Shown here: one piece after another, positions 7,507 to 42,956 of the stretch
How positions within the stretch are numbered: the first letter of the stretch is position 1
Layout: each line of letters opens with the position of its first letter
Assembly: GCA_002633005.1 (NCBI GenBank)
Contig: NMRA01000491.1
Location: forward strand, 210,374-253,329
DNA length: 42,956 nt
Reading direction: 5' to 3'
Origin: Phoronis australis
Lineage: Eukaryota; Animalia; Phoronida
Translations under genes and position numbers: made by a program
Notes under the pieces: generated by a model
Database searches by the model: none
What the model was told of the DNA's origin: nothing
Seen by the model: only the letters and a program-made list of their open reading frames with translations

Positions 7507-7604
7507 AGTCCAGGCCAGACGTCATTACTATACCCAATGACCATGGAATATACCATTATTGGAGCGGTTTCAGGAAATTTCCCACTCGGTATGAGGCTAC
7601 TTAC

Positions 7605-11280: not shown

Positions 11281-11837
11281 GCTGGCACACTTGGTCAGAT
11301 TTGTAACACTATAGGAATTGGGAAAGGAAAGTCACGCGCTTTTCAATCATTTATGTAGGCAACAGCGGGGCGCGAAACACGGCTTCGATTACGACGTTTT
11401 CCCGTTGCTCCCAACTTGTTCGATTCTATAGCCCAACGACAAGTTGGGAAGAACACCCCTGTCACGGTACTGAGTTGAGTTGGGTTTATCCACTTATATG
11501 GTACTGTACTGAGCTCGTTAGGCCTAACCCCAGCGCCATTCGCCAGGATCGCTACTGCCCATGAAATCTAACTGGTTGTCAAGTCAAAATCGAAAGAGAA
11601 ACTTCACCCCAAAAAGTTAAGATAGTTTTTTTGCTTCGGTTCCCTTTCTATCTACGATTTCCCTGGAACTTAGTCAACTGGAGGGCCGCGTGGCTACTCT
11701 CGCCATCTGGTGACTGCACAGGAATATGCTACGAAACTCAAGCGCTTTCTTTTGGCAGACAGAAACAACACGACACGACAAACTTGTAGCAGAGACCAGG
11801 CGGCTCCGACCTATCGTGACTCACGATTGTCAAAGAA

Positions 11838-12114: not shown

Positions 12115-13113
12115 GTAAGTTGCGTACAAGGGGCAGTTCGCTCAGGCAAATGTGCTTTTCACACCCTTTCTACGAAGGGAAGTCTTTTGCCATTTGATTC
12201 CTTACGAAAGGATTCAGTAGGCTTTGAACTTAATGGTACATTTCGCTACAGAACTGCTCGAGTTTCGTAACCTACTTAGGTATTCGGATTGAGAAGATTT
12301 CATTTTTTAAAAAACGGTAGATGATTTATTGGTCCTGGGACACTCATAGCATAAGTCGAAGCGAGGGGCCCCTACTGAAATGCCCATGCACCGATTATCT
12401 TAAACAAAAAGTAAAATAGGATTAATTTTCACTTTTGAAAAGGAAAGCAGTTGAGGCGGGTTCTACATGATGATTACTTAACTGTGTCCACTGGGGAACG
12501 AATAGAATCAGACGATTTCAGGACTTAACACGCCGCTAATCAGTGTGGCCCCACACATGACACCTACAATTCTTTGAAAATTGCTTACTAATTGGGGACC
12601 CATACTCTTGGTCCTACACATGTTGTGTATGGTGGTGTCCAAACGCAAACTTTCGCACCACCAGCCAAGTGAGGTCGGTACTTCCATAGTACTGAGTAGA
12701 AACATGTTTACGTTTATTGTCACCAATTGCCTATAAAACTGTTATGAGCGCGGGGCCCCCAAAAGCGCGGGGCCCATAGCATATGCTGTTAAGTTGTTAA
12801 TCCAGCACTGAGCTAAACAAAATACAACCATCACATAAACTTTTCATTCCGGAATAAAAAATCATTAAAGGCTCTGTACTACTCAAATTTGGATGCGTGC
12901 AATAAACCATTATGCTTTTTCTGTAAAAATATCTTTTCATTAAAGCATTTAAAGAAGAATGTCACCCGAATTAATTAGTCTTTTTTACCGTCTTAATCGG
13001 TCTATATCCTCATCGCCTCTTATACGGTCGACCTCACCTTGCCGAGAGGTGTCGCGTTAACCTGCGAGGAAGGTGAGAAACGATGCAGCGACGTCAGTGG
13101 TTTGTATGCCGCT

Positions 13114-13350
13114 ATATTGCGGTGCATCGTTCCTGCTTGTCCGAACTATGAAGCTGCGAAGGAAGCGGGTATATCGTTTTTTCGACTTCCTCGAGAGCCC
13201 GAAATGCTTAGAAAGTGGCTCGCGGTATTGAAGAATGAAAGGTATGCTGTTAATAGCAAGTATGAGGCCGTGAAACATCTCCGTGTCTCAGTGTGGACGG
13301 CATTTCGTCGACAGTGATTTCTCTGACGAATTCCGGCTTACCAAAGAACT
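13114..13350 (+). pseudogene. THAP zinc-finger remnant (N-terminus of the Kolobok transposase)
   Basis: CIVPACPN...ISFFRLPREPEMLRKWLAVL...HLRV, then after a frameshift CGRHFVDSDF: the C2CH THAP signature with conserved P, W and F. Confidence 0.85.
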
Positions 13351-13371
13351 ATCCATATGTTCCGTTGCCTG

Positions 13372-13512
13372 TGCATGTCCACGGCGCCTCTCTAGTATTT
13401 CTTGATCATTGTATTCCGGTTCGAATTGATAGCCTGTGAAACCCACGATCCGACCAGTCACGGTGAAGTATTCGTCGGACTAAGTCGGGATTGGCGCCGG
13501 GCGAGTTGCTAT
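13372..13512 (-). pseudogene. KolX-like N-terminal remnant, convergent on the THAP remnant
   Basis: Minus frame reads IATRPAPIPT*SDEYFTVTGRIVGFTGYQFEPEYNDQEILERRR. From memory, YxFEPE is the N-terminal motif of the Kolobok second protein. Confidence 0.6.
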
Positions 13513-16016
13513 GTAGACGTTAAACTTTATTATTCTGCGTTCTGTTTCAAAATGAATTATTCTCATCCTAAAATGATCATAACCAATGCTTATATTATAA
13601 AACTGAACTAACGGTTTTTGAAGCCGGCAACAAAGGTAATTGACCAGGCACCGAGGCCGTGTGAGCGAAAGCTGTCTTGAAACAATTACTCGATTTTATG
13701 TGCTATGGTCACATGTTCGCCGTTCCGAGCCACTTCTGACCGGGATAACGACAGTCAGTCCGGCTGCGACGGGCCTGATCGGGCTCCGAGCCAGTGGCCG
13801 GGATAACAAGCGTTTTGTGTGTTTAGAACTCAAAAAGTCACAAGTATAAACAACACAGATCTAGGTTCTCCTGTCTGTATTTCAAGGAAGAATACTTCGA
13901 ATTTATCTCCGAACAGACCCCAAACTCCTGCTACGGACCTTGGTAAAATTGGCCTGCCGAACTTTTTAGGCTACGGTGTGTCCAAATTAATACCAGTAAA
14001 ACCGTAACACATAAACAGCGAAATATAAAACAACACTTTTTTATAAGAACTCGGGGTATTTTTAAGGGTTTTACATCGAAGTTTGATGGTTTTTGGCGTT
14101 AAACGATGAATTCAAGCGATAAGCTGACACCACAAACCCGTGTTGTGAACTGCTGAACAGACTGCGTGTGAAAGCAATTACGTCATTGGATAATTTCAAT
14201 ACCTCCGTCTGCCGTCAGGTAACGCAAACGAACCAGCCGTTATCGAGTAGAACTACTCGATCTAAATTGATACACAATACGTTGTTTTTTGGGTGGCATT
14301 CTCCTTAAAGGACCTGAAATCGACCTCATCGTGTAACTTACTAACATTAGAAATGACTTCTAAGCCTGCTAAAATTGCCATTTCATCATTTTCAACTCCC
14401 GAAGTAAAAACAAAATGGCCCTAACCAGTTTCTATTCAAACAAATTTAGGATTGAACGCGGTGACGTTACTTCTTTAGCAGGGCAAAATCTCCCGTGAAG
14501 GAGGTTGTTTCTAGCTTACAGGGGTTTACAAAACGTCACCAAGCCATCGCTCATATTTTTGGCTTTAACTTGCGTTTGCCGGCAAATTGTACAGGCACCG
14601 GTGCAAAGTGAAACATCTGGGCCAGAAGTTAAATCTTTCTACTCGAAATCGAAATTATTTTTAGCATTTTCTGTTCCCAAGTACATAAAGGCTTACGTTG
14701 GTAACTACCTTATGAGGAAAGACATGGACTCGTCCAGACTACGACGCTACAAAGTGAACGCACGGGTCGCCGTCGAAATATTTCAATATTAATGTTCCAC
14801 CATTTAAGCTGTGAGTAACAGTGTAGCTTCTCTTACTATGTGCTAGTTTGCACTCGTTGACCTCAGCATTAAAGCTAAAAATTCGAGTCTGAACTCGAAA
14901 TTTTGAGTTTTAATCTACTCGAGTTTGCAACTCGAATTTAGGGGTCATCAAGTGCAAACTTGGACTGGAAACTCGCTTGTATAAAACCTGGTATGCACAG
15001 TGCAGAATACCAGACACTTATCGTGAGTTCCCACAAAAATAGAATGAGAATTGCCAAGATAGTTTCGAGTTTAATCTAGAGTGCGAAAAATACACCCCCG
15101 CCCTTTATCTCTTTCTGCATATAAACACAGGATGTAAGAAACCTTAAAACTGAAGTGTGGCGGTGTCACGACATGTTTTCATTAAAAAACACTAGTTTGC
15201 AGCTATTTGATTCTCAAAACGTTTTTAGCACCAGTAATCGCCTACTACCTAGATTACATTTTCTGACGGGCGCCCGGGAATATAGAAATCTGTTAAAACA
15301 CTCTTTTTGTCGAAGCTGCCAAGTTCTTTACCACGGACTTATTGAAAGACTTCTAGGTTAATGATGACAACCTTAGGGCAAAGGCTGCCGGCTTTCAAAT
15401 TGCATACTATTAAGTGCGTATGCGGTAGCCCTAGGATTCAGAATGTTGTATCGTAGTAGAGTAGATGAGGACGAAGCCCTCGGACTGCTTCGCAAGATCT
15501 GTCGATCTCGCCTTCTGTAATTGTTGTGATTAGAATGTTGTATCACAGAGATACAACTACGGTAAAATCTCACAAATTTCGGCCAAAATTATTTGTCTTC
15601 TTTTGCTGTGTTTTACTTTTCGAACGCTTTTGTAACTTTGTTTTTGAACATTTATACTTTTTAAAACAATGTCTGATGGTAAGAGAGATTGAAAACCATG
15701 GGTAAAAACATTACTTTGGTTCTTCTTATCGTTAATGAAAAAATAATGAAATAAAAAATTTGGCTGTCATATTGTGTCCTAAATTGGTAAGATTTTATTA
15801 TAAATTTCTACGTACAACAAAACAGTGAAAAAAAACTGCTCTTTGAGTGACTTAGGAGACTTTTTGCACCTTCCATTCTGCTACACCGAGAATGAAACAC
15901 TTCGAACATAGTTTTGCAACTTGCCATTCTCAATTTCCATTAAAGAATAATATTGCAGATAAATCAAAATAAATACATACATAATAATCTTAAGCAAAGC
16001 ATGACAGACTTAAAAC

Positions 16017-17045
16017 TTATATTTTGTTTAAAACTTGTAAGCTTTGGACGCGACTTGACGATGGAGTGCCGTATTTAGCTGCCTGTTTATGACATCCAAA
16101 TGTAGAACATAGAGCTCGTCTGAACCGCAGGTTGGCCAATCCATATAGGCATGGGTTCACGGCGGCTGTACCTATAGCTAGTAGACTTCCAATCGTGTAA
16201 GCCCAATCTGGCACTATGACATCCGTCACCATGCCTACAGTAAATCCTCTAAAGTCAATGATTAGCATAAGCGCAACTGGGGCCCACGAAAACGCGAAGT
16301 ACAAAACTAAAACAAACAATATCGAGAGTCCTCGCTTTTCTTTGATTAACAAATTTTCTCGCTCTTGTTCATCAAAACTGAGTTCCATCGTGACTATTCT
16401 TTTCAAGTGCTCGGAGGCTGCCCTGAATATCCTCCAATAGAGAAATGCCAAAATTACCACCATAGGCATTACGTGGCCGTAAAATATTAGCGCAATGAAA
16501 CCTCCCGGATACACGAGATTATTAGCGCACTTGTACTCATTCCAAACATATCCTGCTTCCGCCCTGAATTTGATGTTGTTCCATCCACAAAGAGGTAGAG
16601 ACGTCAACAGAAGCGCGTACACCCAGATCATTCCGATAACAATCCTTGCTCGTCGCCCGGTGACTATGTCTGCGTGCCTCAGCGGATACACAAACTGTAT
16701 ATATCGTTCCACGGCGATTGCAATAAGCAACATAGCAGAAACCATAAGCGGAAGTTTCGTCAGCACGATCCCCACGAGACAGACGTATTCCGTGCCGCCG
16801 AACGTGCCATGGACGGTAAGCACACGAACAGGCACCAATACAGCTCCAAATAACAAGTCACTGCAGGCTAAAGCCACGATGAAGTAATGGGTCTTTGTGC
16901 GCAAATTTTTATGAGATCTAAACAGGTAAATCAGAGTAACGTTCCCAAAAATGGCGGCAATCGCAATTATTGTGCATCCGGCGTCGAATACAATGTCTTC
17001 CGGAGCACCATGCCGCCCAGTCTCGTTTGCAACACCCGCATCCAT
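16017..17045 (-). CDS. Class A (rhodopsin-like) GPCR, adenosine-receptor-like/MECA-type orphan, 342 aa, uninterrupted CDS
   Basis: Seven hydrophobic segments with GN (TM1), LACSD (TM2), C3.25, ERY, W4.50, LPLCGWN, an ECL2 Cys, SWAP (TM6), NPCLY (TM7), helix 8 FRRAL and an NET glycosylation site. Acceptor TTTATTTACAG lies 14 nt before the ATG. Confidence 0.96.
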   Translation of the reverse strand: MDAGVANETGRHGAPEDIVFDAGCTIIAIAAIFGNVTLIYLFRSHKNLRTKTHYFIVALACSDLLFGAVLVPVRVLTVHGTFGGTEYVCLVGIVLTKLPLMVSAMLLIAIAVERYIQFVYPLRHADIVTGRRARIVIGMIWVYALLLTSLPLCGWNNIKFRAEAGYVWNEYKCANNLVYPGGFIALIFYGHVMPMVVILAFLYWRIFRAASEHLKRIVTMELSFDEQERENLLIKEKRGLSILFVLVLYFAFSWAPVALMLIIDFRGFTVGMVTDVIVPDWAYTIGSLLAIGTAAVNPCLYGLANLRFRRALCSTFGCHKQAAKYGTPSSSRVQSLQVLNKI

Positions 17046-20000
17046 CTCCGGTCGTGCACCTGTAAATAAAAGTCAATTAATCAGACGAATTTCTCAATCG
17101 AAATCATGATCTAGATTTTTGTCAGGTGTCGCCTTTATGTACGTTACCAACTTAGACGATAAAAATATTTAGCGGGCAAAATACTCGACCGAGAAGACAC
17201 TTGAGAAGCACCCACCAATTTAGCAACACTGCGTTTCTGTGAGAGAAACCTCCGAGAAAATTCGGCGTCAGCCAATCATGGGTAAGCAGAGTTCACAGGG
17301 TTGGAAACTGCATAACTTCCTAATTTCCGGGGCAAAACGTTCATCACTTTGTAAGACCCCAGGAAAGTGTGTTTTATTACGCGAACTTGAATTTTTATTT
17401 CATTCGGGGATGAAAAAAATCCAGTAAGTTGTCTATCGTCTTGCATTTAGACTTTTGATGGCTTTCCCGTGTCTCATATTCTCGTAAACATCTCGAAGCG
17501 TTAAGTATGCAAACAATACTTCTGCCAATTTAGAAATCCTTTGCAGTTTACGAGAAGTGACATTTGCTAACACGAGCCAGTGATCGATAATGCCATCAAC
17601 ATTCTACGATTCTAGGATACCAACACCAAGCATCAATTGAAATGCGATTTCACCACATTGAACAAACGAGGTCATCATAGTTCACTGGCGGATTTAGGAT
17701 GTCGTAAGGGGTTCAACCACGACTTGGAGAAAAATGTTCGTGTAGACCTAAAATCGGCTTGTCGACGGCAAATCAAGTACTGGGATTTAGCCAGCAGAGC
17801 GCTTGGTTGCGACGCAAGAATGTCAAGTCTATTCTGCGCGCTGAGTCAGATCTTAGAAAAAAGATTGCTCCCACAGATAACTATAAGTTGCAAAGCTGGC
17901 TTGACCATTTTCATTTGCAACATGAGTAGAAGTTTCAAAAATACTGAGGACTTTCGCATAATTTGAGAGAATAGGTGATGTAACGGCGGACGTCGACTGC
18001 CTTTCTCGAGCACTGATGGCCTTTGTATTGTGTAACACCAACCACCCTAGCGGAAAACATTATAGAATTACATCTGAGCGCATTCTTATCATTGCAGGAA
18101 GCCTCAATCAAGGCTAATTACGTTTATTATCCGCTAATTTCTGCTGAATCGATAACATTGGAAGGCAAAAAAGCACGAACGATATCAAGACTTTGCTGAG
18201 CAAACAACATTAGTACATTGTGCAATCGGCAATTAAAAGATGTTTTACGTCACACCTGTTTATCATTAGAAAACTTAGCGACGACTGTAGGGAGAGTCAG
18301 CAAAACTAAAAGTATTCTTATTTCTATTCTTTTGCTAACTAGGGTCGTCAACTGAGTTTCCTCAACCGCAACATGATGTTTGAAGGCATTCCGTTATTGG
18401 GCGATTCTACAATGAGCAATTTTTGACAAGATGTACCATCATGCAACGGTTTTGTTCGTTAGAATTCCTGGTTGCCACCCGAAAGTTAAAAAGTCTTAAA
18501 ACAATACAATTTAAGAGACGTTTCGTCAAATCTGGCTTGTCTTACTATTAAATTTTGTAAGGTTTAAATCAGAAATGATGTGGGTACCGTCCCACCTGAT
18601 TCCATGAACAAAGCATATTTACATACTGAGTTCCCACGCACTGATGAAGCAGACGATTCAAGTTCAGTAAAATAGTGGTGAATTTTTACTTGAAGCAAAA
18701 GGTATCACGGAAAAAGTCGCCGTGAAACGGCTTAAGCTACATACGTTCTAGTGCACCCAGTACAAATGAACAACTCATGAAGGTGTCAAACGGTCGTAAT
18801 GACGGAAACGCACGAATCGCGGTGAATCATTTGCAACAGCGCCACCAGTCCAAATTTACTATAGTCACTTTGACAGCTCGCAATGATGCTTTACTACAGA
18901 ACAGAGGGCAAAATAGGAGACGCTATATTCACAACGAAGTACGCGTATCACACAAGTCAAATAAATGAACACAGGAAGAGATTATCTACTAACGACATAG
19001 TCCTGTCACAATCTTCCAACAAATGTTTGAAACACGAGACGAAAAGACATTACCTATTAGGAACGCACCGTCCAGAAAACAATACTTTAGAGGCGTAAAC
19101 CTTTCATCACTTGAGACGCCATCTTAGGGCCTCGACATCACCAATCCTGCATGTGTTCGATCACTGACGCCTGTAACACACAAGCTAGTGTTTATGTAAT
19201 GTGTTCATAATCTCAGCTAAACAAGCAATACACTGGTCCCGACTATGAATGCCTGAGAACATAATGAGAAACTGGTTAGGCATTGTCAATAATGGTGCCC
19301 TACATATAAAAATTATTGAGCCGCTTGTAATAGCTGTTTGTGGTTGGAATGATTTAGCTGCCCTGACATGACCTTGGTTGCAAATTAACAAATACTTCCG
19401 TGTTCTGTTCTGGTTAATGGGCTCAGCCTGCTCCAAGAATTGTAAGTACCAACTGAAGGGTGACTCTTGGGGGGGGGGGTGAATCTGTTGGCTGAACCCT
19501 TTGAAATGTACTAAGCGAGCACCGTTTTCGGAAATAACTTTCNGGGGTTGGGAGGAACTGCCAATGTCCTCTATGCTGAAGTTCCCATTACCCGAAAAAA
19601 GCGGAGGTGTGCGTTTAAGAAGGGTGTTAATTCTACTGGAAAAACGCCAAACAGTATGGCCTTGAGATGATTGTAAGGCTAGACCAATGCAGTATAAGCT
19701 CATACCGGGACTTTACTCGGATATGGGGCGTTTTTTCAAACTTTCTGCAGTCTCAGATGTTTACACTGTTGCAAATAGTGACTTGAACTAACGGGCAAAT
19801 GCGCACCTGTGGCTCTGAAAACAAACGGACTGAAATTCGTAGAGGCAAGCAGAAGTATACGATGACAAAAAGTACAGACTGGTAAAACAATTTTCCTGAA
19901 AGCATTTCTAGATCAAGAGTTGTTTTTTTGACACGTGATCCTGACTATCTGAAACCTTATCAGTTTTCATAGTTTCATCACGCACACACGAGTCGATTTC

Positions 20001-24822: not shown

Positions 24823-25049
24823 TTTCATTGAAAATACACGGCAATACCTCGCATAATCTCGCGAAGTCTTGCTTTTCCAGCAAGGTCCTAGCGACTAGGT
24901 CCACGTTATTGAACTCTACCCTGACTGAAAGGCAAATACTGAACGTCGTGGAATGCGAGTCCGATAGAAATTGGTTCGGCAGCAAAGAACTGTTTTAAAT
25001 GGAGATGGACAAATCTACGCGCAAGGGAAACAACAAAAACGAAGTCCTG

Positions 25050-25200
25050 GCGTGCGTTCAGTAACGCTAGGACCAACGCCAGGACGACCTAGCTAAAATC
25101 TAGCCCAAGTCAAGTGCTCTCATTGAAAATATACGGCAACATCTCGCGTAATCTCGCGAAGTCTTGATTTTTAGGGAGGTCCTAGCGTTACTGAACCGTT
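25050..25200 (+). mobile_element. Harbinger-like MITE
   Basis: Perfect 19-bp inverted repeat GTTCAGTAACGCTAGGACC (25056-25074 / 25178-25196). Relatives at 24823-24915 and 37310-37430. Confidence 0.8.
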
Positions 25201-26625: not shown

Positions 26626-27869
26626 AAGAAACTGTCCCCTTTCTTCCATCTTTTTTCATATTTTTATTTTGCTCTAGCATGATAATTACACGTCACATAA
26701 AATAATACAGTATACATCTTTTACAAAAACATAACATTAAATCATTAGTCAACAAGTACCGTATTTCAGGATGTAATTTAATAAAGTTAATGAACAATTG
26801 GATATTAAGGTTTTTTAACAAACTTTTGGCTAAATATGTATTTTTTTGCTAGCATGATCAACAGATTAATTTTACAATTTTCCGACAGAATGTTTCCCCA
26901 AAAAACCCAAAAAACACTGCTATCTAGTCCACGTGAAAATTAACATGATACGTTTATTTTAACCACTCAGTAAACAGGAGCCAGAAACAGGAGACAAGAC
27001 GACATTCCCAAGAGATGGAGAAAAGTTTCACTGTGTTCACCACAGAAAGAACATAGATCACTTGTTTTTATTTTAATTTTATGTAAATAATTATTAGTTG
27101 GTAATATTCTGTGAATTAAGCGGTATTGAAACCAATGCAATTTTGTATCTTTTGCACAATTGAAGGGAAGTTTATTTACTTTTCTCCACCATGTGTCAGA
27201 GTCACTTAAATTTATATTATTTATAACACGGTTTATATCTATCTCAGATGACCACTTGTTTTTACATTTACAAGCTGTCTAAAGTGACTGTAATAAGGTG
27301 TCATAAATATTTAGCGCTTGTGATTTATCAAAATTTTATAGATATAACTTGGAAAATTTGGTAAAAAGATATTGTCTTGTTTATTCTTAAAGTCACTATT
27401 TCCTTTACTTTCACCTGCTTAGATCACAAATTGAGCTCTGTCAATCGATATAACTAAAATTAACACTTTTCGTAAATTACAGCCATGTACATACTCTCGT
27501 TATTTTACTATTAATTTTTTAAAATTTATAAAAAGTGGGCGGACCTTCAGCCAAACCTCATTATTTATGCGGGTTGCCAGTGGAGAGATTACCCATAATG
27601 CACACGAATCAGCTGACGGAAAAGAAATGTGTCAAGCACAAGCGACCGAGGTGAGTTAGGTGTTTTGGGACTTCTTGTCAGCTAACCAAGAAATCATAAC
27701 GTACAAACATGTGGAAATCACAGCTTGATTCTTACTCGTGACAACAAGATTAATTTGTTCTNGTAGAAAATAGATTTTTTTTACCAACTTTAATCTTTGA
27801 ATTATACCACAGGGGAGAGTAAATAATATTTTCATTTTTGTCACACATTTGAAACAGGAGCACAACATC

Positions 27870-30670
27870 GCTTAAAACTTTCTTCCAGAACAGATTGTCG
27901 GTTCCTTCAGCTATTTTTTAAGGAAAGCGTCTCCCATTTTAAAAAAGTTATCAACTTTACAACCCAAAACTGCCTCTGCAAGGTCACGTATGGTATTTGA
28001 GGTGAATAGTTTACGAAGCCACGACATTTTCAAAGACTTAAAAAAACTAACATGAACCATTCTTAAACCACCATGATCCTGATTTTGTACAATTTCATTT
28101 CAGCTAACTCTGTCATTCTTCCCATTCCAAATGAAGCCAAAAAACTCGCTCTAATTCTTGAATCATGTCAATGGAGGGGCTAGGGAGAGATTGAAGCAAA
28201 TGAACAATCTTGGGCAATAAAAGTGTCTTAACCGCGGGTATTTTACCTAAAACAGTAAGAATTCTTCTTGACCAAGAGCCCACCATTTTCTTAATTTCCA
28301 AAAGCCCGCAACTATAGTTAATACCCGGCATTGTATTATAATCAGTGGAGAAGTTGATTCCCAAAAACATGAAAGGTTTGTTGATAACAGGTTCTCATTG
28401 ACACAAAGTTTTTCGCCAGAGTTTTTTTCTGAACCAATCCAAACACATCTTGTTTTCTCGATGTTTGGCTTCAGACCAGAAAATTTCGCAAATTGGTCAA
28501 TTAAATTCAAAGATGATCTAAGAGATAACTCAAAACCGTCCAAAATTAAACAAGTGTAGTCAGTGTACTGGATCAATTTAAACTCAGAAACACCTATTCT
28601 GATCCCAGTGATGCCACCATCCCGACGAATTAAATTGCCCAATATTTCTACACATAATACAAAAAGGTAAGGAGAAATAGGGTCTCCTTGACGACAGCCT
28701 CTCCCCATTTCAAAAAATTCAGAGAAAAATCCATGTTGGAGAACACAAAGACAAGATTTGTTATAGAGCGTTTTGACCGTGTCAATGAACCTTGGGCCAA
28801 AGTTAAGTACGATAATGCCTTGAGGATGGAAGACCAGGAAACCAAGTCGAAAGCTTTTTCAAAATCGACCATTAAGAGGAGTCCGGGAAAGGGTTTACAA
28901 TCTAAAAACTGAATTACATCATATAAAATTCTTATAATTTCCCCAATATATCTGCCTTTCACGAAACACTGTTGGTTCACGTGAATAAGGGGTCCGAGGA
29001 CGCTTTTTAGGCGTCTTGCAATACAACCAGACAAAAATTTGTAAGTAATATTCAATAGTAAAATTGGACGCCAATTTTTGATGAATTCTCTTGGTTTATT
29101 TTCTTTTGGTATTATTGAGATAATACCATGTTTTTGCGTTGTAGATAATTTATTGATACCTTCTTCAAAAGATCGGAACAAATAATATTTAAGGTCAGGC
29201 CAAAAATTTTTTAAAAATTCTACTGTGAAACCATCTGGGCAAGGACTTTTGTGGTTTTTAAAATCTTTCAGAGTTGCATGAATTTCCTCCAAAGTGACAA
29301 ATTTTTCAAGTTCGACTCGGTTAGACTGGTTCAGTTTAGACATTGGGCACGATGCCAAAAGTTCATTTAAATTAACATCAACAAGGTCGCCGTCTTTACA
29401 GGAGTATAAATTTTTATAAAAAGAAGTGATCTCCGAGAGGATAGCGGATTGTTTCTTGATAGCGTTATTGGAGCTTAGTAGCTTAGTTACATTCTTATTC
29501 ACAAAATTTCGTTTTTTTAATGCACAAAAATATTTGGTTGGTTTTTCACCATTTTCAACCCAGTTGTCTCTCGATCTGACCATTGATCCATGCATGTATT
29601 CTATGCGATAATCCTCGTATTCTGACTTCTTTTATTTTCCAATAGAGCAGGATCGTCACTCTCATTGAACCTATGTTGTAAGGACATTAAATGTTCTTCC
29701 AAGTCTTTTCCTTTTCTATTTTTTTCTTAGAGATACAAAATGGAATAGTTACCGTTCGAATATTTAACAATAATGTCTCCAAAAATAATTGATCAGATAT
29801 TGAAGATTATCCGAGTCAATTTCTTGTATTTTGTTCAAATCGTATACTGGAAGAGCATATTGTTTTTTCGTACACAAAATCTCATTCTTGACGAGATTAA
29901 TATATTCTTTTTATTTTAGCAGTGAGTTATTAAATTTCAAAAACCCCGATCCTTTTTTGAACGTAGTTAATTGTATAGTTAAGACGACGTTGTTATGGTC
30001 CGATCGGTAGCCCGACTGTATTTCCACCTTTTCGATACGCGAGAGTAATTGTTGGGTAACAAGAAACTAATCTAACCTAGCCTTTTTGACTGGATTTGTC
30101 CTGGACCATATAAACTTTTTCGCTGAGGGATAATAAACACGCCATGGGCCCGTGCGATCAAGAGCCACCTTCATCTCCAGCATTTGGTCACGAATTTTAG
30201 GGTTATTTACAGAGATATAACTATGGCAATCAAGGTAAAAATCTTGGACCAAATTAAAATCGCCACAAACAACAACAAAATCGTTATTGTAACTGGCGAT
30301 TTTCTGTGAAATGTCATTAAAAATTGAGGGCTATCTTTGTTTGGTCCATAAATATTCACCAACACAATAGAAAAACCGTTATTTACTTCAAGCTCTAAAA
30401 TTTGGAGATTTCCTGCAGTATCCGAAGTAAAAGATTGAACTTTAAGTTGAAAATTACTATTAAACAAGATAGCAACACCCCTGGAATCACTTCGACCATG
30501 GCTGAAAAAACAGTCCTAACCTCACTGAGCTCGAATTGTGAGTCTTTCCGCAACAGTTAAGTGAGTATCTTGTACGCAGAAAATACTGTAGGCACGCTGC
30601 TTTATATAATGGAAAACAGAGTTCCTAGAGCTCTACAGTTAAAAGATGCAATTTTCAAATTGTTCGCCAT
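27870..30670 (-). mobile_element. Degraded Tx1/L1-clade LINE ORF2 (endonuclease plus RT, 3'-truncated); probable spacer sequence extends to about 31050
   Basis: Starts MANNLKIASFNCRAL, followed by SRGVAILF, VNIYGPN, GDFN, ENGEKPTKYF, KSPCPDGFTVEF, NWRPILLLN, VDFEKAFD, GCRQGDPISPYLF, QYTD and FSGLKPN, with many stops and frameshifts. Confidence 0.92.
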
Positions 30671-31884: not shown

Positions 31885-32801
31885 AGGGAACTTACAATAG
31901 TATATGATAGTAAGTCAGTTTAGCCGTGCGTCAAAAAGTGAGATATTTAGATGGCGTGGCGGAATGGCGGAAAAATTCTAAAAAGCGGGACAGTCCGCAA
32001 AGAGCGGGACAATTGGCAAATACACAGTGAAGCTGTCAGAAAGAAGAAGTACTGGATTGGGTTCTTTTACAAGGTAAACTTTTAATTTTATTTAACGGGT
32101 GTAGTCAAGTACTGCAGATAACAGTAGTTATAGGGAAATACAACAAAATAACACAGTTATTTTAACACACCTGTTTTTAGGGCCTAAGCTTTCATTTAGG
32201 ACAAATGTAACTTCTTTCCGTAAAAAGACGTAACACGAATTTAACACCCAAAAATGAGTAACAAGTAAATGCGCATGGCGCTATATAGTAGCTTAATACC
32301 ATTATCACAAAAAAGGAACAAATTCTTACGAAACGCGATAACAACATATATGACACGTCCAAATATTGGCCTGTAAAATTTAACGTAAATGAAAGAGCTT
32401 GCGTTTCACTGAAATGCCACAAGTATAATATTAAAGTCTGAATGGAGATTTGGTACTGAAAAAGAAGATAATGAAAAAAAAAACAAACAAAAGAAAACTG
32501 AAACTTTGCAGTATTTATCATTGACAGAGGTTGATATGTCAAATGAGCCGTTTCACTAAAGACGTGTCAAGTTTGTAATGCAGTTTAAAAACCACACTAA
32601 CGTTGCTTGTCTGGTGACAGTGTATGCAAAGCATTCCACATTAGCGACGCGTTAACGCGTCACAAAACGAACACATTTAAGTGAATAACATTACCTCGCT
32701 CAATACAAATATTAAAGTGTGTGTTACCATGCAGTCTTCACACACAGACTTACCCTGGAAGAACTTGTACTACTAGTGCAAGTTAAATGTCCCACTTTTA
32801 A

Positions 32802-34264
32802 AGGAGAATGCCACCAAAAAATCAACCTATTTTATATCAATTTAGATCGAGTAGTTCTACTCGATGACGGCAGGTTCGGTTGCGTTACCTGACACCTGAC
32901 GGCAGCCGGAGGTGTTGAAATTATCCAATGACGTAATTGGTTTCACACGCAGTCTGTTCAGCAGTTCACAACACGAGTTTGTGGTGTCAGCTTATCGCTT
33001 GAATTCATCGTTTGACACAAACTTCGATGTAAAACCCTTAAAAATACACCGAGTTCTTATAAAAACGTGTTTTATATTTCGCTGTTTAAGTGTTACGGAT
33101 TTACTGGTAGTGGACACATCGTAGCCTAAAAAGTTCGGCAGGTCAATTTACCAAGGCCCGTTGCAGGAGTTTGGGATCTGTTCGGGGATAAATTCGAAGT
33201 ATTCTTCCTTGAAATACAGACAGGAGAACCTAGATCTGTGTTGTTTATACTTGTGATTTTTTGAGTTCTAAACACACAAAACGCTTGTTATCCCGGCCAG
33301 TGGCTCGGAAGCCGATCAGGCCCGTCGCAGCTTGAGTTGGAAACTAAACCTCCAGTCACGAAAAGACTATAATGTTGAGCCAAAGAAATAATGTGCACGT
33401 AATTATTTATGTGAATTAGCCACGAAACTGAAAATCTATTTACTTGTCGGGGGCCGCGAAGTCGGGTTCCCCTTCCACATACCGTCAGGGCAAAGGTTGT
33501 ACAGTAACAATGATTTGAATAATGTATTTCAAAGATTTTCCTAACGAGTAATTGTTTCACGACAGCTTTCTGTCAGCAAACACTGAATTAGCATGCGCTC
33601 ACACGGCCTCGGTGCCCGGTCAATTACCTTTGTTGCCGGTCACGCAATGGTTGGCTAGGATCATTTTAAGATGAGAATAATGCATTTTGAAACAGAACGA
33701 AGAATAATAAACGTCTCAGTTCATAGCAACTCGCCCGGCGCCAATCCCGACTTAGTCCGATACTTCACCGTGACTGGTCGGATCGTGGGTTTCACAGGCT
33801 ATCAATTCGAATCGGAATACACTGATCAAGAAAAGCGCCGTGAACATGCACAGGCAACGAATCATACGGATAGTTATTTGGTAAGACGGAATTCGTCAGA
33901 AAAATCACTGTCGACGAAATGCCGTCCAACGACAAGGAGATGTTTCACGGCCTCATACTTGCTATTAACATTCTTCATTACCGCGAGCCACTTCGTAATC
34001 ATTTCGGGCTCTCGAGGAAGTCGAAAAAACGATATACCCGCCTTCTTCGCGGCTTCATAGTTCGGACAAGCGGGAACAATGTACCGCGACATAGCGGCAT
34101 TCAATCTGCCGACGAACCACTGACGTCGCTGCGTCGTTTCTCACCTTCCTCACAGGTTAACGCGACACCTCTCGGCAAGGTGAGGTCGACCGTATAAGAG
34201 GCGATGACGATATAGACCGATTAAGACGGTAAAAAAGACTAATTAAATCGGGTGGCATTCTTCT
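32802..34264 (-). mobile_element. Internally deleted Kolobok transposon, copy 2 (inverted relative to copy 1)
   Basis: TTAA|AGGAGAATGCCACC ... GGTGGCATTCTTCT|TTAA (13/14 TIR, perfect TTAA on both sides). THAP remnant at 33874-34092 (minus) and GYQFESEYTDQE on plus. Confidence 0.9.
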
Positions 34265-34933
34265 TTAACTTATAGTCTGTATTATTGATAAATAGTATTA
34301 GACCCTGAAGATCGTGATTACATTATGTAAACACACAGCTCAACAGCTGCATTAAGTTTAAATAGCGTCCACACAGCCTCCAAACCTAGCGATAACTCAT
34401 CCCAGGAGTAACGTTTTCTAGGATGGTTCTGCGCCAGTGTGAACGGCACTTCTTATTCAATGTCATCTGCGCTGGAACGCGTACACCGGAAGTCAAGCAG
34501 CTATGACTGATGATCAGGGTAGAGTTTAATGACGCTAGTACCTCGTTAAAAACCAAGGTCGCGAGACAGTTCGCGAGATGTTGCTGTGTGTGAGAGCACA
34601 TGATTTTGACTAGATTTTACTCACCGCCAAATAGCTACAATTGACCTCTACCTAGTTCTAGACCTACATTGTGTACAGGTGAGTGTCACGATCGGCCATT
34701 TTATCATGATTTCTCGTGTGAATTTAATCCTACTTTTTGATATCCAAAGAAAACTAACAACATCTGACACTGCATACAACACCAACAATTCTAAAAAAAC
34801 ACAGTGTAGTATTTACAGTTACATGTAGGTTATAAACGAGAAGGCAGCCAGGCAATAAGTGCTACTGGATACTTCCATTCCGCCTGAAGTTTAAAATGAG
34901 AACAACATTCGTACAGCGGGTGAAAAAATCTAA

Positions 34934-35248: not shown

Positions 35249-35608
35249 CTAAAGTATAGCACAAATAGAACTGTATTCTTTCGATCCTCCATAAGATCGC
35301 GAAGCTGTGTTATCAGGCGACGAAAGCTTACGCTTGGTGCTCGGACCAGGGAGTTCCTGTTGCTTTTTCGTGATGCGTGGGGCTAAAGACTTCCGGATAC
35401 CTGTAAGATCTCGTTTCTTTTTCTCTTTACGGATAGTTTTCTTTTTATTAAATTTAGTCTCGTTTCCAGAGTCCATGCTGAAAAACGAAGAAAGAGATTC
35501 TCTGACAGTATCGACGTTATCGTCTTCGAGATCCTGCTGTTGCTGCTCTGAACAGTTGACGGACGGCTGCAGCGCCATCGGCAAAGTAGCTTTGACGGTG
35601 CTCTGCAT
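35249..35608 (-). CDS. Gene B, exon 4 (terminal): MQSTVKAT...KKKTIRKEKKKR...KRKLSSP...EYSSICAIL*
   Basis: Acceptor TATTTCAG|, phase 0, 119 codons, ending exactly in the CaaX motif CAIL before TAG. Confidence 0.75.
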   Translation of the reverse strand: MQSTVKATLPMALQPSVNCSEQQQQDLEDDNVDTVRESLSSFFSMDSGNETKFNKKKTIRKEKKKRDLTGIRKSLAPRITKKQQELPGPSTKRKLSSPDNTASRSYGGSKEYSSICAIL

Positions 35609-35860
35609 CTGAAATACCAAGTCGAATGTGATGATTTTTTGCGGTACGATGCATAACGCACTTTCCACACGTAGACAAGGGACCATTGTCCACATACTAA
35701 GATTATCTTACAAGATTTTTTTCAGGTTGATAGTGTTTCGGGAGAGGCGTTGCTGACGGAATGAGAGGTTTCATGATTCATTCACTCCATAATGCTGTTT
35801 TAACGTATTAAAATACGTCACGTTAAGTAATTCTGCCGTAGGTAAACCTGATTAACTTAC

Positions 35861-35959
35861 TATAATTTCAAGCGAACCGCGCTTCTCTTGGACCAGTATG
35901 CTGTGGGATGAATTAGGAGTTTCTGTTTTGGCGTCTCGAACTGCAGCAAAGTTCATGAT
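35861..35959 (-). CDS. Gene B, exon 3 (IMNFAAVRDAKTETPNSSHSILVQEKRGSLEII)
   Basis: Acceptor TTTCTTTACAG| and donor ATA|GTAAGT, 99 bp. Only the phase 0-0 frame is open. Confidence 0.75.
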
Positions 35960-36144
35960 CTGTAAAGAAATGTTGAAATTAGGAAACACTGAATTTTCAA
36001 ATGGTGAAGTCATTAATGTCGAAGTGTGCGAGGATGGCGTTTGTCCTTTATCAGTTACACAGGCATTCGTACTTTCGTTTATAATGTAAACAGCATCTCT
36101 GAGAAATGTTAACAGTGAAACGACGGCACATCTAGAAGCGGAAA

Positions 36145-36146
<2 letters not shown>

Positions 36147-36200
<54 letters not shown>
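36147..36200. repeat. (AT)27 microsatellite
   Basis: Read directly. Confidence 0.99.
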
Positions 36201-36202
<2 letters not shown>

Positions 36203-36329
36203 CAACAACTGTACACAAATAATTGTGCTTTCCCTGAAAAACACGAGTTCTCTATTCTGTAAGTAGAGACAGTTTTCATTGTTATAGGCCGGCAAACGGA
36301 CCTTCCGGAATTTTCTCGTGAATAAAATC

Positions 36330-36593
36330 TCTTTCTAAAGATTTCCCAGCCCCTTTATTAGACTTTGGCACCGTGTTAAAGATTTTCTAGCCCTTAGTTT
36401 TTATTTTCCCACCCTTTATTAAAGATTGTCCCGCCCTTTTAATTTTCCTGCTTTTTCTTTAAAGATTTTCCCGCTCTTTTGTCAATATTTCCCGTCCTGT
36501 TTCCCGCGCTTTTATTAGATTTTCCCGCCTTCTTAAACATTTTCCCGCCTTCTTAAAGATTTACCACTCCACTTTTAAGATTTTTCCCGCCCA
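36330..36593. repeat. Degenerate 20-23-bp minisatellite (TAAAGATTTTCCCGCCCCTTTAT-like), roughly a dozen copies
   Basis: Recurring AGATTTTCCCGC core. Confidence 0.85.
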
Positions 36594-37309
36594 ATATATT
36601 TGGTTTGCTTCTCAAATATGCATTTGATTCTTTTGGAGGGCCAAAATTGAGATTCCAAAATTTAAGTTTGAGGCATCTTGCATGCATACGTTGCTATGGA
36701 GACTGTAGGCAGTTGTGCGATTTTGGTAAGATATCCTACTTCTAGAGCGTCATACGATATGAAGAAGGATAATTGCATATACCCTTTATGTTTTTGTAGA
36801 GCTAAGATCATTATAGGCACAGACACAAACTAAGGTACGAAGGTTGGGTCGTCAATCCCTACCATCATACATACTATCAAAGAAATACGTAAATGTTTGT
36901 CTGGTTCACTCGTGGACGTGCACTTAAAAGCGTTGATAACAGCACAGCTTTTACGTGACGTTTGCGTTTCATAACCTAAGCATGTAACACCAGGGTAGTT
37001 TCCCAGCCAAAGGTGATTCCCGTACAATAGCAGGTATCCGTGCGAAGCACGGGTTCCAGTAGCGTGGTTTTGAGAGTATATCAAAAGCCTTTTTGACATC
37101 GTTGCTTGTAGTGCAGCTTTTGACCATGGGTTACAACGAAAGAAGGCAAAGACTATGGCCCAAAATCAGGGTCTGTAGTTATGATTTTGGTTTTCGGAGC
37201 TTTCATTGTGTGACTGCTTAAAAAATCTTATCCATGCGAAGTTCAGTTTCACGGCAATGTAGAATAATCGTTGTCTACAAGCGTTAAGTAATGAGAGACA
37301 TGCCTCCCA

Positions 37310-37430
37310 TTCAGTAACGCTAAAAAGCAAAACTTCGCAAGATTACGTGAGATATTGCCGTGCATTTCAAATTAGAACACGTGACTTTGACTAGGTTTTA
37401 GCTAGGTCCTAGCGTCTACTGAACGCACGC
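37310..37430 (-). mobile_element. Harbinger-like MITE, inverted copy of 25050-25200
   Basis: TTCAGTAACGCTA ... TAGCGTCTACTGAACGCACGC; the interior matches the reverse complement of the 25-kb copy. Confidence 0.75.
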
Positions 37431-38035
37431 GTGATCATTTAAACAAAGTTGAGAATTCTTGGCTTAAAAATATACAAAAACTTGCGTGTTTATCGCATTT
37501 CACCACAGAATGCATGGTAGTTAGAAATGCATCACAACCATGACTCAAAATTTAGCAAAAAGTACGCAATATTATGGCAAATGCGGGGATCTTATCACTC
37601 ATCATATTTATTTGGGAACATTGATTTTAAAAGATTTGAAAACATACTAGCGTGTTATATGAAGTCTTCGATACACGTCGCTGCAAAATATTTTAAAATT
37701 CATTTAGAACAGTACCAATAATATGCCCGTACATGTATGAACCTTTATATATTATAAGTCGATCTTGTGCACGCGAAGAGCCATTTAAGTGGCTCACCCT
37801 AGAGACCAGAGCCTGCATTTGTTACCAATCTGTTTCCTTGGACACCCCGGCCAACTGAAGGATACTAATTTTCTAAAATTATGGCAGAGGGAAAACGTGA
37901 CGGTCAATTTTTTCATCAAGTCAACGGAAGTGTCATACGTTTGGTAAATGTGCGATCATCGTTCGGTAAAACTAAACCTTAGACTTTATCCCATACGCGT
38001 TGAATCAGTTGAGTGCAATACGGCCATGTATTCAC

Positions 38036-38138
38036 CTCCCGCACTACTTCAACAGTGCCCTCTGACATGGAAAGTTCAAAAGGTAGCCGGTCGATGTCTA
38101 CTCGACGTTGTATTTGCGCGTTAGGATGCAAGTTTTCT
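38036..38138 (-). CDS. Gene B, exon 2 (ENLHPNAQIQRRVDIDRLPFELSMSEGTVEVVRE)
   Basis: Acceptor TTTCTTTTACTAG| and donor GAG|GTGAAT, 103 bp. Phase 2 in and phase 0 out match both neighbouring exons. Confidence 0.65.
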
Positions 38139-38445
38139 CTAGTAAAAGAAACATTTTTAAATGTGACGATTATGTACGCCACTCTCGGTACGTTTTGTGT
38201 ATTTATATGACAGTTCTATCTCAGTTTTCAATTGATAATTGATATACCGTCTGAAACTCAGGCGCCGATTCCTCGGTAACTACAATATCAAATATTGTTG
38301 TTTATTAACTATTATCAGGACATGTTACAAGTTCAATGCACAGTTACCCTTTTTCATCTTTGTTACCTCTTTTAAAGTAATAAATCATTACATTTAAAAC
38401 TGTTTCTTTTACTAGAGAAAACTTGCAACTTAACGCGCAAGTACA
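38109..38445. repeat. 56-bp inverted repeat (52/56) with a 225-bp spacer
   Basis: 38109-38164 is the reverse complement of 38390-38445 with 4 mismatches. Confidence 0.95.
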
Positions 38446-38827
38446 TACATATAGGATGTGATCCGCCACGCGAACAGTCTGAGTGAAGTATTTAAAAAAT
38501 CTGCCGAAAAAATGAAAAAACTTAGGAATTCGAAGCGCATGGGGTAAATGCGGTCTGTCGGTACGCGGAATATTGTCTCGTGGGATATTACTTCATCTAC
38601 GCCACTCTCGGTACGTTTTGTGTATGCCCTGTCACGTGACTATCGGCATGGATCTGTGCAAGTCATCTCGAGCCGTTACCTGAGGCGATTGAGAGAATCT
38701 GCTTTTTCTCAATTTTTACAATCAATGTAGGATCTACGCTTTCGGGAGCAGGGGCAGTATTATAAGGAGATGGAGGCAGTACTTTGAAACAAAAAACGTG
38801 TGTGAGTTCAGAAGCAAGGTAAATTAC

Positions 38828-38889
38828 CGTCCGCTCTCATTGGCTTCATAATCCTTACGCTTAGCACAGGCAGAGAACAACGAACCCAT
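38828..38889 (-). CDS. Gene B, first coding exon (MGSLFSACAKRKDYEANESGR)
   Basis: GAGATGG Kozak context, in-frame TGA 27 nt upstream, MGxxxS motif and donor CG|GTAATT (phase 2). A possible 5' UTR intron spans 39205-39091 (GG|GTAAGT ... CTTTATTCAG|). Confidence 0.7.
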
Positions 38890-40115
38890 CTCGTCGTCCC
38901 AAGTGAAAGGCAGTCATGGGGAACAGTTGTACGAATTAGAGGCTAGTTCATCATTGCACTAGCTTGTCACGGCGGGTTACTTCAGATGCTGACTGGGCGT
39001 CTTGGGAATTTCTTGTGTTTTGCGAAAACCAAGATCACTAAAAAGGGATACGAATAAACTGACTTTGTTTTGGAAAGGGGAAAGACGGCACTGAATAAAG
39101 TTATCTTTTTATACCTGAACATAGTTTAAAGTGGCTAAAAGCGCAGAGAGTAGTTTGATACATTGAATTGTGTATTCGATTCAAATTCCGATTTCAATCA
39201 CTTACCCGTTACAGATTGCTTATTGATGGCAATGACCATTCACTGTACACTCCATCGCGGTCCAGTATGGAACTGATTGACACTGTCTTACTGGACCATT
39301 CAAATGGTTGCTATGGACATGCGAAGTCTAATTTGTCAATTCCCTCAGTGGGTTGCCTTGTCATAGTAGTTCATAGCATCAATAGTTGGGTATGCCTCCG
39401 TCTCATTCCCGGTAGTCGTTCTCACCCAGGTGTCTCATTTTTGTCTACTGTTGGCACCCCCTCCTTTTCCAGCCGTGGCAATAGGCACTGCTAATTGAAA
39501 GGTTAATAGACGGACCTAGGGGGAAGAACAGGGGTCCGCCTCTCCATATACGCAACCCAAACTGCATGCCGTTTAAAAGCTAACGCGAACCTTTTATTCG
39601 AAAATTATGGTTTAGATCAGTTCCCTTAAGACATTCTAGATCCACCACTGGAATTTCGAAGTTGATGCAATTGTTTCTTGGATAACTACGTGAGCAAGAT
39701 GCTGTTTAAATATCTTCGCTGTACTTTAATTCAGATCATCGCATACTGTTATTCAAGTTTATGACGAACAGTTATAAATAAAATATAATTCTCCAAAATC
39801 CATTCGGGCTCTAGCATACGGGGTATAACGACTTCGCCATCTATATTTATTTATGACTTTATTTAGACTCGTGCGCTAGTTGCGATAATAATATGCATAT
39901 AGGCACATGCGCCAAAAATTCGCGTAGGGTACATGCCGACTTAAAAAGGCCCAGGGTCACCCCTTAGGGTAAGACCAACCAAAAAGAACACTTTGCTTGA
40001 AAATCGTCCAATTTTGGGAGGCTTTCGCAGTTCATTGTATTTTTTTGGTGCGGCTGTATTGTTTCTGAAAATAACATTGCATCCGCAACATCAAGCAATT
40101 AAGATGCATTATCAA

Positions 40116-40752: not shown

Positions 40753-42956
40753 TAAAATTCTCGGTATTTCGGGGTAGGGCAAAGTCGTGCGGGGCTTTGT
40801 GAGGACTGACGAAAACTTAACCATTAAAAGTCAGTTCTTTTTCTTTTCCTCTACTGAGGGATGGCCATAGGACTTAGGAACGGAGGGGCATCGATTTTCA
40901 AAGGTTAGTTTTTCAGCAACAGACGTTTGAACTGAGGAGGCGGAATCTCCGAAAAATTCTCGGTTTTTCGAGGTAGGGCAAAGTCGTGCGCGGTTTTGCG
41001 CCAATTGACGAAAACTCAACGGATGAAAGTCAGTTCTTTTTCTTTTCCTCTACTGGTGGAGGGCCAGAGTACCTAGGAACGGAGGGGCATCGATTGTCAA
41101 TGGTTAGTTTTCCGGCAATAGACGTTTGAATTGAGGAGGCCGAATCTCCGTAAAATTCTCGGTTTTTCGGGGTAGGGCAAAGTAGTGCGCGGTTTTGCGC
41201 CAACTGACGAAAACTCAACGGTTGAAAGTCAATTCTTTTTCTTTTTCTCTACTGATGGAGGGCCAGAGGGCCTAGGAACGGAGGAGCATCGATTTTCAGC
41301 GGTTAGTTTTCCGGCAATAGACGTTTCAACTGAGGAGGCGGATTCTCCGTAAAATTCTCGGTTTTTCGGGGTAAGGCAAAGTCGTGCGGGGCTTTGTGCC
41401 GATTGACGAAAACTTAACCGTTGAAAGTCAGTTTTTTTCTTTTCATCTACTGAGGGATGGCCATAGGACTTAGGAACGGAGGGACATCGATTTTCAAAGG
41501 TTAGTTTTTCAGCAACAGACGTTTGAACTGAGGAGGCGGAATCTCGCAAAATTCTCGGTTTTTCGAGGTAGGGCAAAGTCGTGCGCGGTTTTGCGCCAAT
41601 TGACGAAAACTCAACGGTTGAAAGTCATTTCTTTTTCTTTTCCTCTACTGGTGGATGGCCAGAGTACCTAGGAACGGAGGATCATCTATTTTCAACGGTT
41701 AGAATTCCGGCAATAGACGTTTCTACTGAGGAAGTGGAATCTCCGTAAATTTCTCGGTTTTTCTGGGTAGGGCAAAATCGTGCGGGGCTTTGTGCCGATT
41801 GACGAAAACTTAACCGTTGAAAGTCAATTCTTTTTCCTTTCCTCTACTGATGGAGGGCCAGAGTACCTAGGAACGGAGGGGCATCGATTTTCAGCGGTTA
41901 GTTTTCCGGCAATAGATGTTTGAATTGAGGAGGCTGATTCTCCGTAAAATTCTCATTTTTTCGGATAGGGCAAGGTAGTGCGCGGTTTTGCGCCAATTGA
42001 CGAAAATTCAACCGTTGAAAGTCAATTCTTTTTCTTTTTCTCTACTGATGGAGGGCCAGAGGGCCTAGGAACGGAGGATCGTCTATTTTCAACGGTTAGT
42101 TTTCCAGCAATAGACGTTTCAACTGAGGAGGCGGAATTTCCGTAAAATTCTCGGTTTTTCGGGGTAGGGCAAAGTCGTGCGGGGCTTTGTGCCGATTGAC
42201 GAAAACTTAACCGTTGAAAGTCAATTCTTTTTCTTTTCCTCTACTGATGGAGGGCCAGAGTACCTAGGAACGGAGGGGCATCGATTTTCAACAGTTAGTT
42301 TTCCGGCAATAGATGTTTGAATTGAGGAGACGGAATCTCCGTAAAATTCTCGGTTTTTCGGAGTAAGGCGAAATAGTGCGCGGTTTTGCGCCAATTGACG
42401 AAAACTCAACCGTTGAAAGTCAATTCTTTTTGTTTTTCTCTACTGATGGAGGGCCAGAGAACCTAGGAACGGAGGAGCATCGATTTTCAGCGGTTAGTTT
42501 TCCGGCAATAGACGTTTCAACTGAGGAGGCGGATTCTCCGTAAAATTCTCGGTTTTTCGGGGTAAGGCAAAGTAGTGCGCGGTTTTGCGCCGATTGACGA
42601 AAACTCAACCGTTGAAAGGCAATTCTTTTTGTTTTTCTCTACTGATGGAGGGCCAGAGAACCTAGGAACGGAGGAGCATCGATTTTCAACGGTTAGTTTT
42701 CCGGCAATATACGTTTCAACTGAGGAGGCGGATTCTCCGTAAAATTCTCGTTTTTTCGGGGTAGGGCAAGGCAGTGCGCGGTTTTGCTCCAATTGACGAA
42801 AACTCAACCGTTGAAAGTCAATTCTTTTTCTTTTTCTCTACTGATGGAGGTCCAGAAGACCTAGGAACGGAGGAGCATCGATTTTCAACGGTTAGTTTTC
42901 CGGCAGCAGACGTTTCAACTGAGGAGGCGGAATCTCCGTGAAATTCTCGGTTTTTC
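40753..42956. repeat. Satellite DNA, about 199-bp monomer, about 11 copies, running off the window end
   Basis: Units start at 40831, 41030, 41229, 41428 ... 42221, 42420, 42619 and 42818 and are highly similar to each other. Confidence 0.98.

Follow-up and report, generated by a model that had tools for sequence, protein, structure and literature searches.

A candidate lineage-restricted gene of Phoronis australis predicted to encode a disordered protein with lipid-anchor motifs at both ends

The DNA analyzed here, referred to as the window, is a stretch of 42,956 nucleotides (nt) from the phoronid Phoronis australis (assembly GCA_002633005.1, contig NMRA01000491.1, positions 210,374 to 253,329) with a GC content of 40.5%. 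Its minus strand holds a candidate gene, which a preliminary description had presented as four exons encoding a protein with a lipid-anchor motif at each end. The arithmetic of that model was reproduced when the exons were joined by script: 62, 103, 99 and 360 nt gave 624 nt, encoding 207 amino acids (aa) and a stop with no internal stops, and all three introns were GT-AG with phases 2, 0 and 0. The terminal motifs were recovered as well, with Gly2, Ser6 and Cys8 at the N-terminal end and CAIL followed by the stop at the C-terminal end, where the Cys of the CaaX box is Cys204. An in-frame stop lies 9 to 10 codons 5' of the predicted start ATG at 38889. Exons 1, 3 and 4 are single-copy DNA, and exon 2 is not. 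The 207-aa product is itself the weakest part of the model, exon 2 being repeat-derived, and this exact length is unlikely. The features of the locus are collected in Table 1. The TATA-like site was considered as strong promoter support and was rejected, since such sites occur at 0.76 per kb in the window. Exon 1 as a 5' exon of the G protein-coupled receptor (GPCR) gene at 16017-17072 was also rejected, as the two differ in phase (2 versus 1) and lie 22 kb apart.

Table 1. Positions in the window of the candidate gene's parts and of the repeats over its second exon
Feature	Position	Strand	Description
TATA-like site	39107-39113	-	224 nt 5' of the ATG
Exon 1, 62 nt	38828-38889	-	ATG, MGxxxS myristoylation consensus, Cys8, short basic stretch; single-copy DNA; RNA depth zero
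Exon 2 of the preliminary description, 103 nt	38036-38138	-	Frame open, composition protein-like; entirely inside nested dispersed repeats; optional
Exon 3, 99 nt	35861-35959	-	Strong acceptor and donor; in-frame ATG is codon 2; PKA-type KRGS; RNA depth zero
Alternative middle exon, 40 nt	35861-35900	-	Acceptor 35900; in-frame link between exons 1 and 4 that bypasses exon 2, 153 aa
Alternative middle exon, 271 nt	35861-36131	-	Acceptor 36131; in-frame link between exons 1 and 4 that bypasses exon 2, 230 aa
Exon 4, 360 nt (119 aa and stop)	35249-35608	-	Opens with ATG, closes with CAIL-stop; predicted disordered
Phospho-FFAT core, borderline	35468-35488	-	Residues 129-135 of the 207-aa model; score 3.0-3.5
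Polybasic cluster	35411-35455	-	Residues 140-154; the CaaX Cys follows about 50 residues later
CaaX box	35252-35263	-	CAIL
Dispersed repeat over exon 2	37995-38625 (ends approximate)		Reads 85-99% identical, both strands, four of four runs
Element with 63-nt inverted arms	38109-38445		Arms 38109-38171 and 38383-38445, 90% identical; probably like a miniature inverted-repeat transposable element

The predicted start, G-S-L-F-S-A after the initiator, fits the consensus of N-myristoyltransferase (NMT) quoted in PMC10616557, with Gly2, uncharged or neutral residues at 3 to 5 and Ser at 6. At the other end, geranylgeranyltransferase I (GGTase-I) favors Leu at the X position of the CaaX box, a flexible hydrophilic linker and Ser or Lys at -1, as described in PMC1175975, and small or hydrophilic residues make up most of the 11 that precede the CaaX Cys, which by eye matches the prenylated tails described there. 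CAIL can be farnesylated in vitro as well (PMC1175975, PMC3017772). The readings of N-myristoylation and of geranylgeranylation at CAIL in the preliminary description thus agree with the consensus data, with farnesylation as a further possibility for CAIL. The net charge of exon 4 is -7 over the first 50 residues and +15 over the last 69, and the charge-hydropathy line classes the exon as disordered. A single-sequence AlphaFold model was weak (pLDDT 58.9, pTM 0.18) and placed one helix over the FFAT-like stretch; for exon 4, at least, the earlier suggestion of disorder is supported by these results. The motifs found include KRGS and RKLS, of PKA type, together with DSGxxT and KKKR. The polybasic cluster is possibly a lipid-binding patch or a nuclear signal. 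The phospho-FFAT core scores 3.0 with one and 3.5 with the other of the two conversion tables given in Table EV4 of PMC7705450, the range used there being 0-3, and the same score was reached by 226 to 322 of 5000 shuffles of exon 4 (4.5-6.4%).

Splice sites were ranked with approximate donor and acceptor matrices among the 5101 GT and 4771 AG sites of the window. The donors of exons 1, 2 and 3 ranked in the top 2.8%, 1.2% and 2.7%, and the acceptors of exons 3 and 4 in the top 1.1% and 5.0%. When exon 2 was skipped and the 35959 acceptor kept, the frame stopped at codon 22. Two other acceptors, 35900 and 36131, scored 3.39 and 4.97, both above the 0.28 of exon 2, and the resulting three-exon routes retain the myristoylation start and the CAIL end, indicating that exon 2 is not required. 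The lead-ins to the acceptors 35959 and 35900 are similar, each with a branch-point-like CCTAATT, as though a small old duplication had produced them, and the 59 nt between the two acceptors mean that they suit different upstream phases. In 3000 trials, an in-frame exon matching the strength of the short form of exon 3 was found within 1 kb of the fixed acceptor in 139. Intron 2 also holds a degenerate tandem array of 20-40-nt units at 36331-36590 and a (TA)27 microsatellite at 36147-36200, which adjoins the alternative acceptor 36131. The sole Rfam match, to mir-1277, lay at this (TA)n microsatellite and was under the gathering score.

The preliminary description had held that the exact terminal position of both motifs speaks against a chance assembly. 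This argument is partly circular, because the termini were picked by their motifs, and the null runs nevertheless show that such a chain is rare. Among 691 order-4 Markov copies of the window, none contained a chain from MGxxx[ST] to CaaX whose last exon measured 300 nt or more, and five did when the last exon was allowed to be as short as 60 nt. The composition of the exons was compared with an approximate protein average, a rough test in that the real hydrophobic GPCR was not flagged by it. Stop-free random stretches reached the composition of exon 1 in 286 of 17810 cases, of exon 2 in 40 of 8174, of exon 3 in 438 of 8634 and of exon 4 in none of 64.

We tentatively favor, at somewhat under even probability, a real lineage-restricted gene that is silent in the sampled tissues, being tissue-restricted, and whose first and last exons would encode a mostly disordered scaffold protein of 150-230 residues, lipid-anchored twice in the same membrane. 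The weight given to this and to the other readings is a judgement from the chance rates. In the favored reading, NMT would attach myristate to Gly2 during translation and GGTase-I would add a geranylgeranyl group to the Cys of CAIL. Probable palmitoylation of Cys8, together with the polybasic patch, would trap the chain at the plasma membrane, and both lipidated ends would favor its inner face, so that the protein would form a loop on one cytosolic face. With PKA-type sites and a weak phospho-FFAT between the anchors, the loop could act as a phosphorylation-controlled adaptor, doubly anchored in the manner of DIRAS3.

Transcripts, exon 2, database searches, motif details and the null runs themselves supply the points that weigh against this reading. 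Transcription was examined in raw data of three RNA-seq runs and in a contig set, all labeled as the same species, with bins set on the exons; 12.8, 11.3 and 11.0 million records were read from the runs (18-19% of each), along with 239,584 contigs. No depth was recorded over exon 1 or exon 3 in any of the four sets (about 35 million records), which excludes reads over all three proposed junctions in the records read, and no spliced read over any junction was found in the three runs or in the contig set. Alignment over a wider stretch gave a concordant result. Exon 4 was covered in run X3 only, by 302 nt corresponding to one read pair, of which 118 nt fall within the exon and 184 nt in intron 3; the pair spans the intron 3 border and is therefore unspliced. 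Of 21 joints, the 15 shown all lay in repeats. This RNA blank lowers the odds of a gene without refuting it, because the tissues are unspecified and the stretches held no single-copy expressed gene as a positive control. The RNA-seq check of the three junctions proposed with the four-exon model thus returned no junction read.

Exon 2 is a further difficulty. Both of its splice sites lie inside repeats: the left arm of the inverted element contributes the acceptor and the first 30 nt, and the remainder with its donor sits in a second repeat. Its acceptor is also the weakest of the model, only in the top 10.4% of the AG sites. Position 38058 was covered by 255-389 reads per RNA run, about 80% of which carried a different letter. 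The repeat reads derive from both strands although the libraries are stranded, as shown by an allele at 38415 that was counted at 321 versus 3 in run X1. Loose read ends before 38028 and behind 38086 continue into sequence resembling the introns on either side and reach neither exon 1 nor exon 3. An origin of the exon 2 reads in paralogous transcripts was accordingly rejected, given the intron-like loose ends and the presence of both strands in a stranded library. Some reads link 38075 to sequence matching 38444 onward, which corresponds to an insertion-free form. The consensus of the loose ends, read by eye, has an in-frame stop where the window copy has the inverted arm, and we infer that exon 2 is open, and exists as an exon, only at the insertion junction of the window's repeat copy. 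In favor of exon 2 are a composition in the top 0.5% and a donor in the top 1.2%, and the few differences from the read consensus leave the frame intact. Exon 2 would be either a repeat-derived cassette or unused; its use, if the gene is real, is a fair way from assured and slightly more doubtful than the favored reading. A separate, highly abundant short palindromic repeat lies in intron 2 at 37318-37430, with a depth of about 300-700 per RNA run, and three more copies of it occur in the window, including those at 34524-34619 and 24825-25187.

The large protein searches were made with exon 4 only (119 of the 207 residues), exon 1 being too short. At E values up to 10, none of 361 longer candidates and none of seven candidates of near length was a homologue. 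The sole phmmer match among 1.84 billion representatives (P0001, E 2.3e-6) was rejected as an artefact of 52-residue tandem repeats, in which eight weak stretches sum up and the best BLAST score was 25.8 bits. No Pfam family, the GTPase domain included, passed the cut-off for any exon. Exon 4 was confirmed in none of 594 pattern matches among metagenome contigs, had no usable match in the ESM Atlas (recognition 1267), and gave one match among Protein Data Bank (PDB) sequences, at E 0.98, which is no relative. An exact look-up gave 0 of 3, and the GPCR is likewise absent from that collection as an exact entry. The Pfam and PDB results bear out the earlier statement that no domain is recognizable. 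Two small matches of exon 1 were set aside: that to the Pfam family Herpesvirus UL11 (E 0.1, below cut-off) reflects only the common acylation motif, and a 21-nt pattern found at two metagenome loci matched over 21-23 nt only and was ascribed to chance. As a control, the GPCR at 16017-17072 was searched, and no relative was found at E up to 1e-30 among 7805 candidates. Since a real GPCR next door is also without close relatives, the homologue blank says little, and the databases searched seem to lack kin of this animal.

Further points against the favored reading concern the motifs and the null runs. Residue -1 of the CaaX Cys is Ile, not the Ser or Lys preferred by GGTase-I in PMC1175975, and the polybasic cluster is distant from the Cys. 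The matrices were approximate, and the strict null thresholds were placed post hoc at the observed scores, so the chance rates are optimistic; moreover, the window was drawn from a scan of about 250,000 windows, in which rare chains are expected. Taken with these limits, the chance figures indicate that a real gene is likely, not certain, and the gene is likely but unconfirmed.

The first alternative, which we consider unlikely, is that exons 3 and 4 encode a protein with the CaaX anchor only, starting at the ATG of exon 3 or exon 4 or in an unseen exon, exon 1 being either unrelated or left untranslated. In its support, the strongest splice pair belongs to exon 3, which also contains an in-frame ATG preceded by A at -3; exon 4 opens with an ATG; and a direct exon 1-3-4 splice at 35959 runs into a stop at codon 22. 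How readily a start is acquired by chance was estimated with exons 3 and 4 fixed and the 4 kb upstream randomized in 6944 trials under strict and loose thresholds. A joinable bare MG start arose in 909-1805 trials (13-26%) and an MGxxx[ST] start in 159-346 (2.3-5%), rates that leave room for this alternative. A joinable MGxxxS start with the Cys, which is the full consensus that exon 1 carries, arose in only 20-50 trials (0.3-0.7%), and in the real sequence the sole joinable MG start is 38889. Exon 1 also has a donor in the top 3% and two repeat-free in-frame routes to exon 4. The destination of a CaaX-only protein would be the plasma membrane, by way of the polybasic cluster and CaaX, or the inner nuclear membrane, where Kugelkern-type proteins reside. 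The KKKR motif, which resembles a nuclear signal, fits the latter, but CAIL favors geranylgeranyl, and the tails of lamin and Kugelkern are farnesylated.

Marginally less probable again is the absence of any functional gene, with the model either a decayed pseudogene or put together by chance from open pieces that derive in part from repeats. The lack of spliced RNA and of homologues and the repeat origin of exon 2 all speak for this explanation. Either motif alone is common: eight MGxxx[ST] starts and eight loose CaaX-stop endings occur in the window. By chance alone, 0.9-1.3% of random windows contain a terminal CaaX exon of 300 nt or more, which would amount to many windows in a scan of this size. 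The explanation is opposed by the whole-chain null, in which no copy of the window matched, and by composition, for which exons 1, 2 and 4 all rank within the top 0.5-1.6% or better. The homologue blank is uninformative, as no close relative was found for the real GPCR either, and the RNA blank comes from unspecified tissues with no single-copy expressed control.

The preliminary description proposed a membrane staple able to link two bilayers or to loop along one. The loop on one membrane is part of the reading we favor; the bridge, although physically possible, is improbable, clearly more so than the alternatives above, and nothing beyond the borderline phospho-FFAT speaks for it. As an organelle tether, the protein would have its lipid ends in two bilayers, or would bind VAP on the endoplasmic reticulum (ER) through the phospho-FFAT with its lipids on the plasma membrane. 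A disordered chain of 150-200 residues would span about 10 nm at rest and up to about 70 nm at full stretch by polymer scaling, enough for a contact site. Both sets of anchors would, however, be expected to prefer the same leaflet of the plasma membrane. The phospho-FFAT score compares with 2.5 for STARD3 in Table EV4 of PMC7705450, but it is matched by the shuffles of exon 4 noted above. The sole tested precedent in the literature covered, DIRAS3, was modeled with both ends in one membrane (PMC10616557), and the gene itself is unconfirmed. A minimal tether, disordered and domain-less, with three lipid anchors at its opposite ends, gated by phosphorylation of the phospho-FFAT in its middle and with its span set by a cassette exon that arose where two nested transposon insertions meet, is the least probable of all and very doubtful.

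As matters stand, the locus amounts to an orphan gene model, unconfirmed and drawn from a single assembly, for which neither a transcript nor an orthologue was found. The doubly anchored proteins met in the literature, DIRAS3 and some protist Rhebs, have a GTPase between their anchors. If the model is true, a chain with only a disordered linker in that place would offer a clean test in nature of whether the two lipidated ends bridge separate membranes or form a loop on one, and also of how a repeat-derived exon alters linker length. The earlier remark that both lipid motifs on one chain are uncommon holds, in that double anchoring is uncommon but known, as in DIRAS3; the absence of a folded domain between the anchors would be new. 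No domain-less tether with a myristoyl group and CaaX was found in the literature searched, which was covered by title-level listing and with most subscription journals outside it.

The rest of the window contains another gene and several repeats. The GPCR (minus strand) is of the rhodopsin family and forms an uninterrupted 7tm_1 frame (Pfam E 9.8e-39), with a strong acceptor at 17059 just 5' of its ATG; its nearest Atlas clusters come from cnidarians, echinoderms and chordates. A repeat with a THAP domain is present as two inverted copies, 12949-14309 and 32798-34268, which are 84-90% alike (THAP E 1.8e-7 in the first copy) and heavily covered by RNA reads from other copies. It is likely a derivative of a P-element-type transposon. 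Two broken elements of the long interspersed nuclear element (LINE) type lie at 9938-11331 and about 26967-30515, both on the minus strand, with endonuclease (PF14529, E 5.9e-15) and reverse transcriptase (PF00078, E 5.3e-9) pieces. A satellite repeated in tandem about every 199 bp occupies 40753-42956 in at least 11 copies that are 85-90% alike, and continues past the window end. On the minus strand at 7602-7774, an open stretch of about 57 codons begins with an ATG, runs up to a consensus GTAAGT donor and may be the first exon of another gene.

Several known proteins combine parts of the proposed arrangement. MARCKS and BASP1 carry an N-terminal myristoyl group and a basic patch, paralemmin a C-terminal CaaX and a palmitoyl group, and Kugelkern a nuclear signal and CaaX. 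Like the protein proposed here, they are domain-less, charged, disordered chains that lipid and basic residues keep at a membrane and that are tuned by phosphorylation; in contrast to it, they have lipid at one end only, and no homology to them was detected. The STARD3-type phospho-FFAT ligands of VAP likewise have an F-F-S core after an acidic tract and are membrane-bound partners, whereas here Met at position 5 is penalized and the score is borderline on the scale of PMC7705450. Several protist Rhebs are predicted to be N-acylated and prenylated, one of them with three lipid types. For such variants, the T. trahens protein being an example, myristoylation, palmitoylation and prenylation are predicted on one chain, with anchors gained lineage by lineage (PMC5869587). 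These are GTPases, their lipidation is predicted and not in all cases demonstrated, and they have no sequence tie to this gene. The closest likeness is to DIRAS3, a human Ras-family GTPase of 229 aa, for which PMC10616557 reports myristate on Gly2 by mass spectrometry in addition to the C-terminal CaaX, and loss of function in both the G2A and the CaaX Cys mutants. Between its anchors lies a folded GTPase, whereas no domain was detectable here and homology is not implied. The same two-ended lipid anchoring on a chain of similar length, predicted here from sequence, is what the candidate protein would share with DIRAS3, both ends of which are modeled in one membrane.

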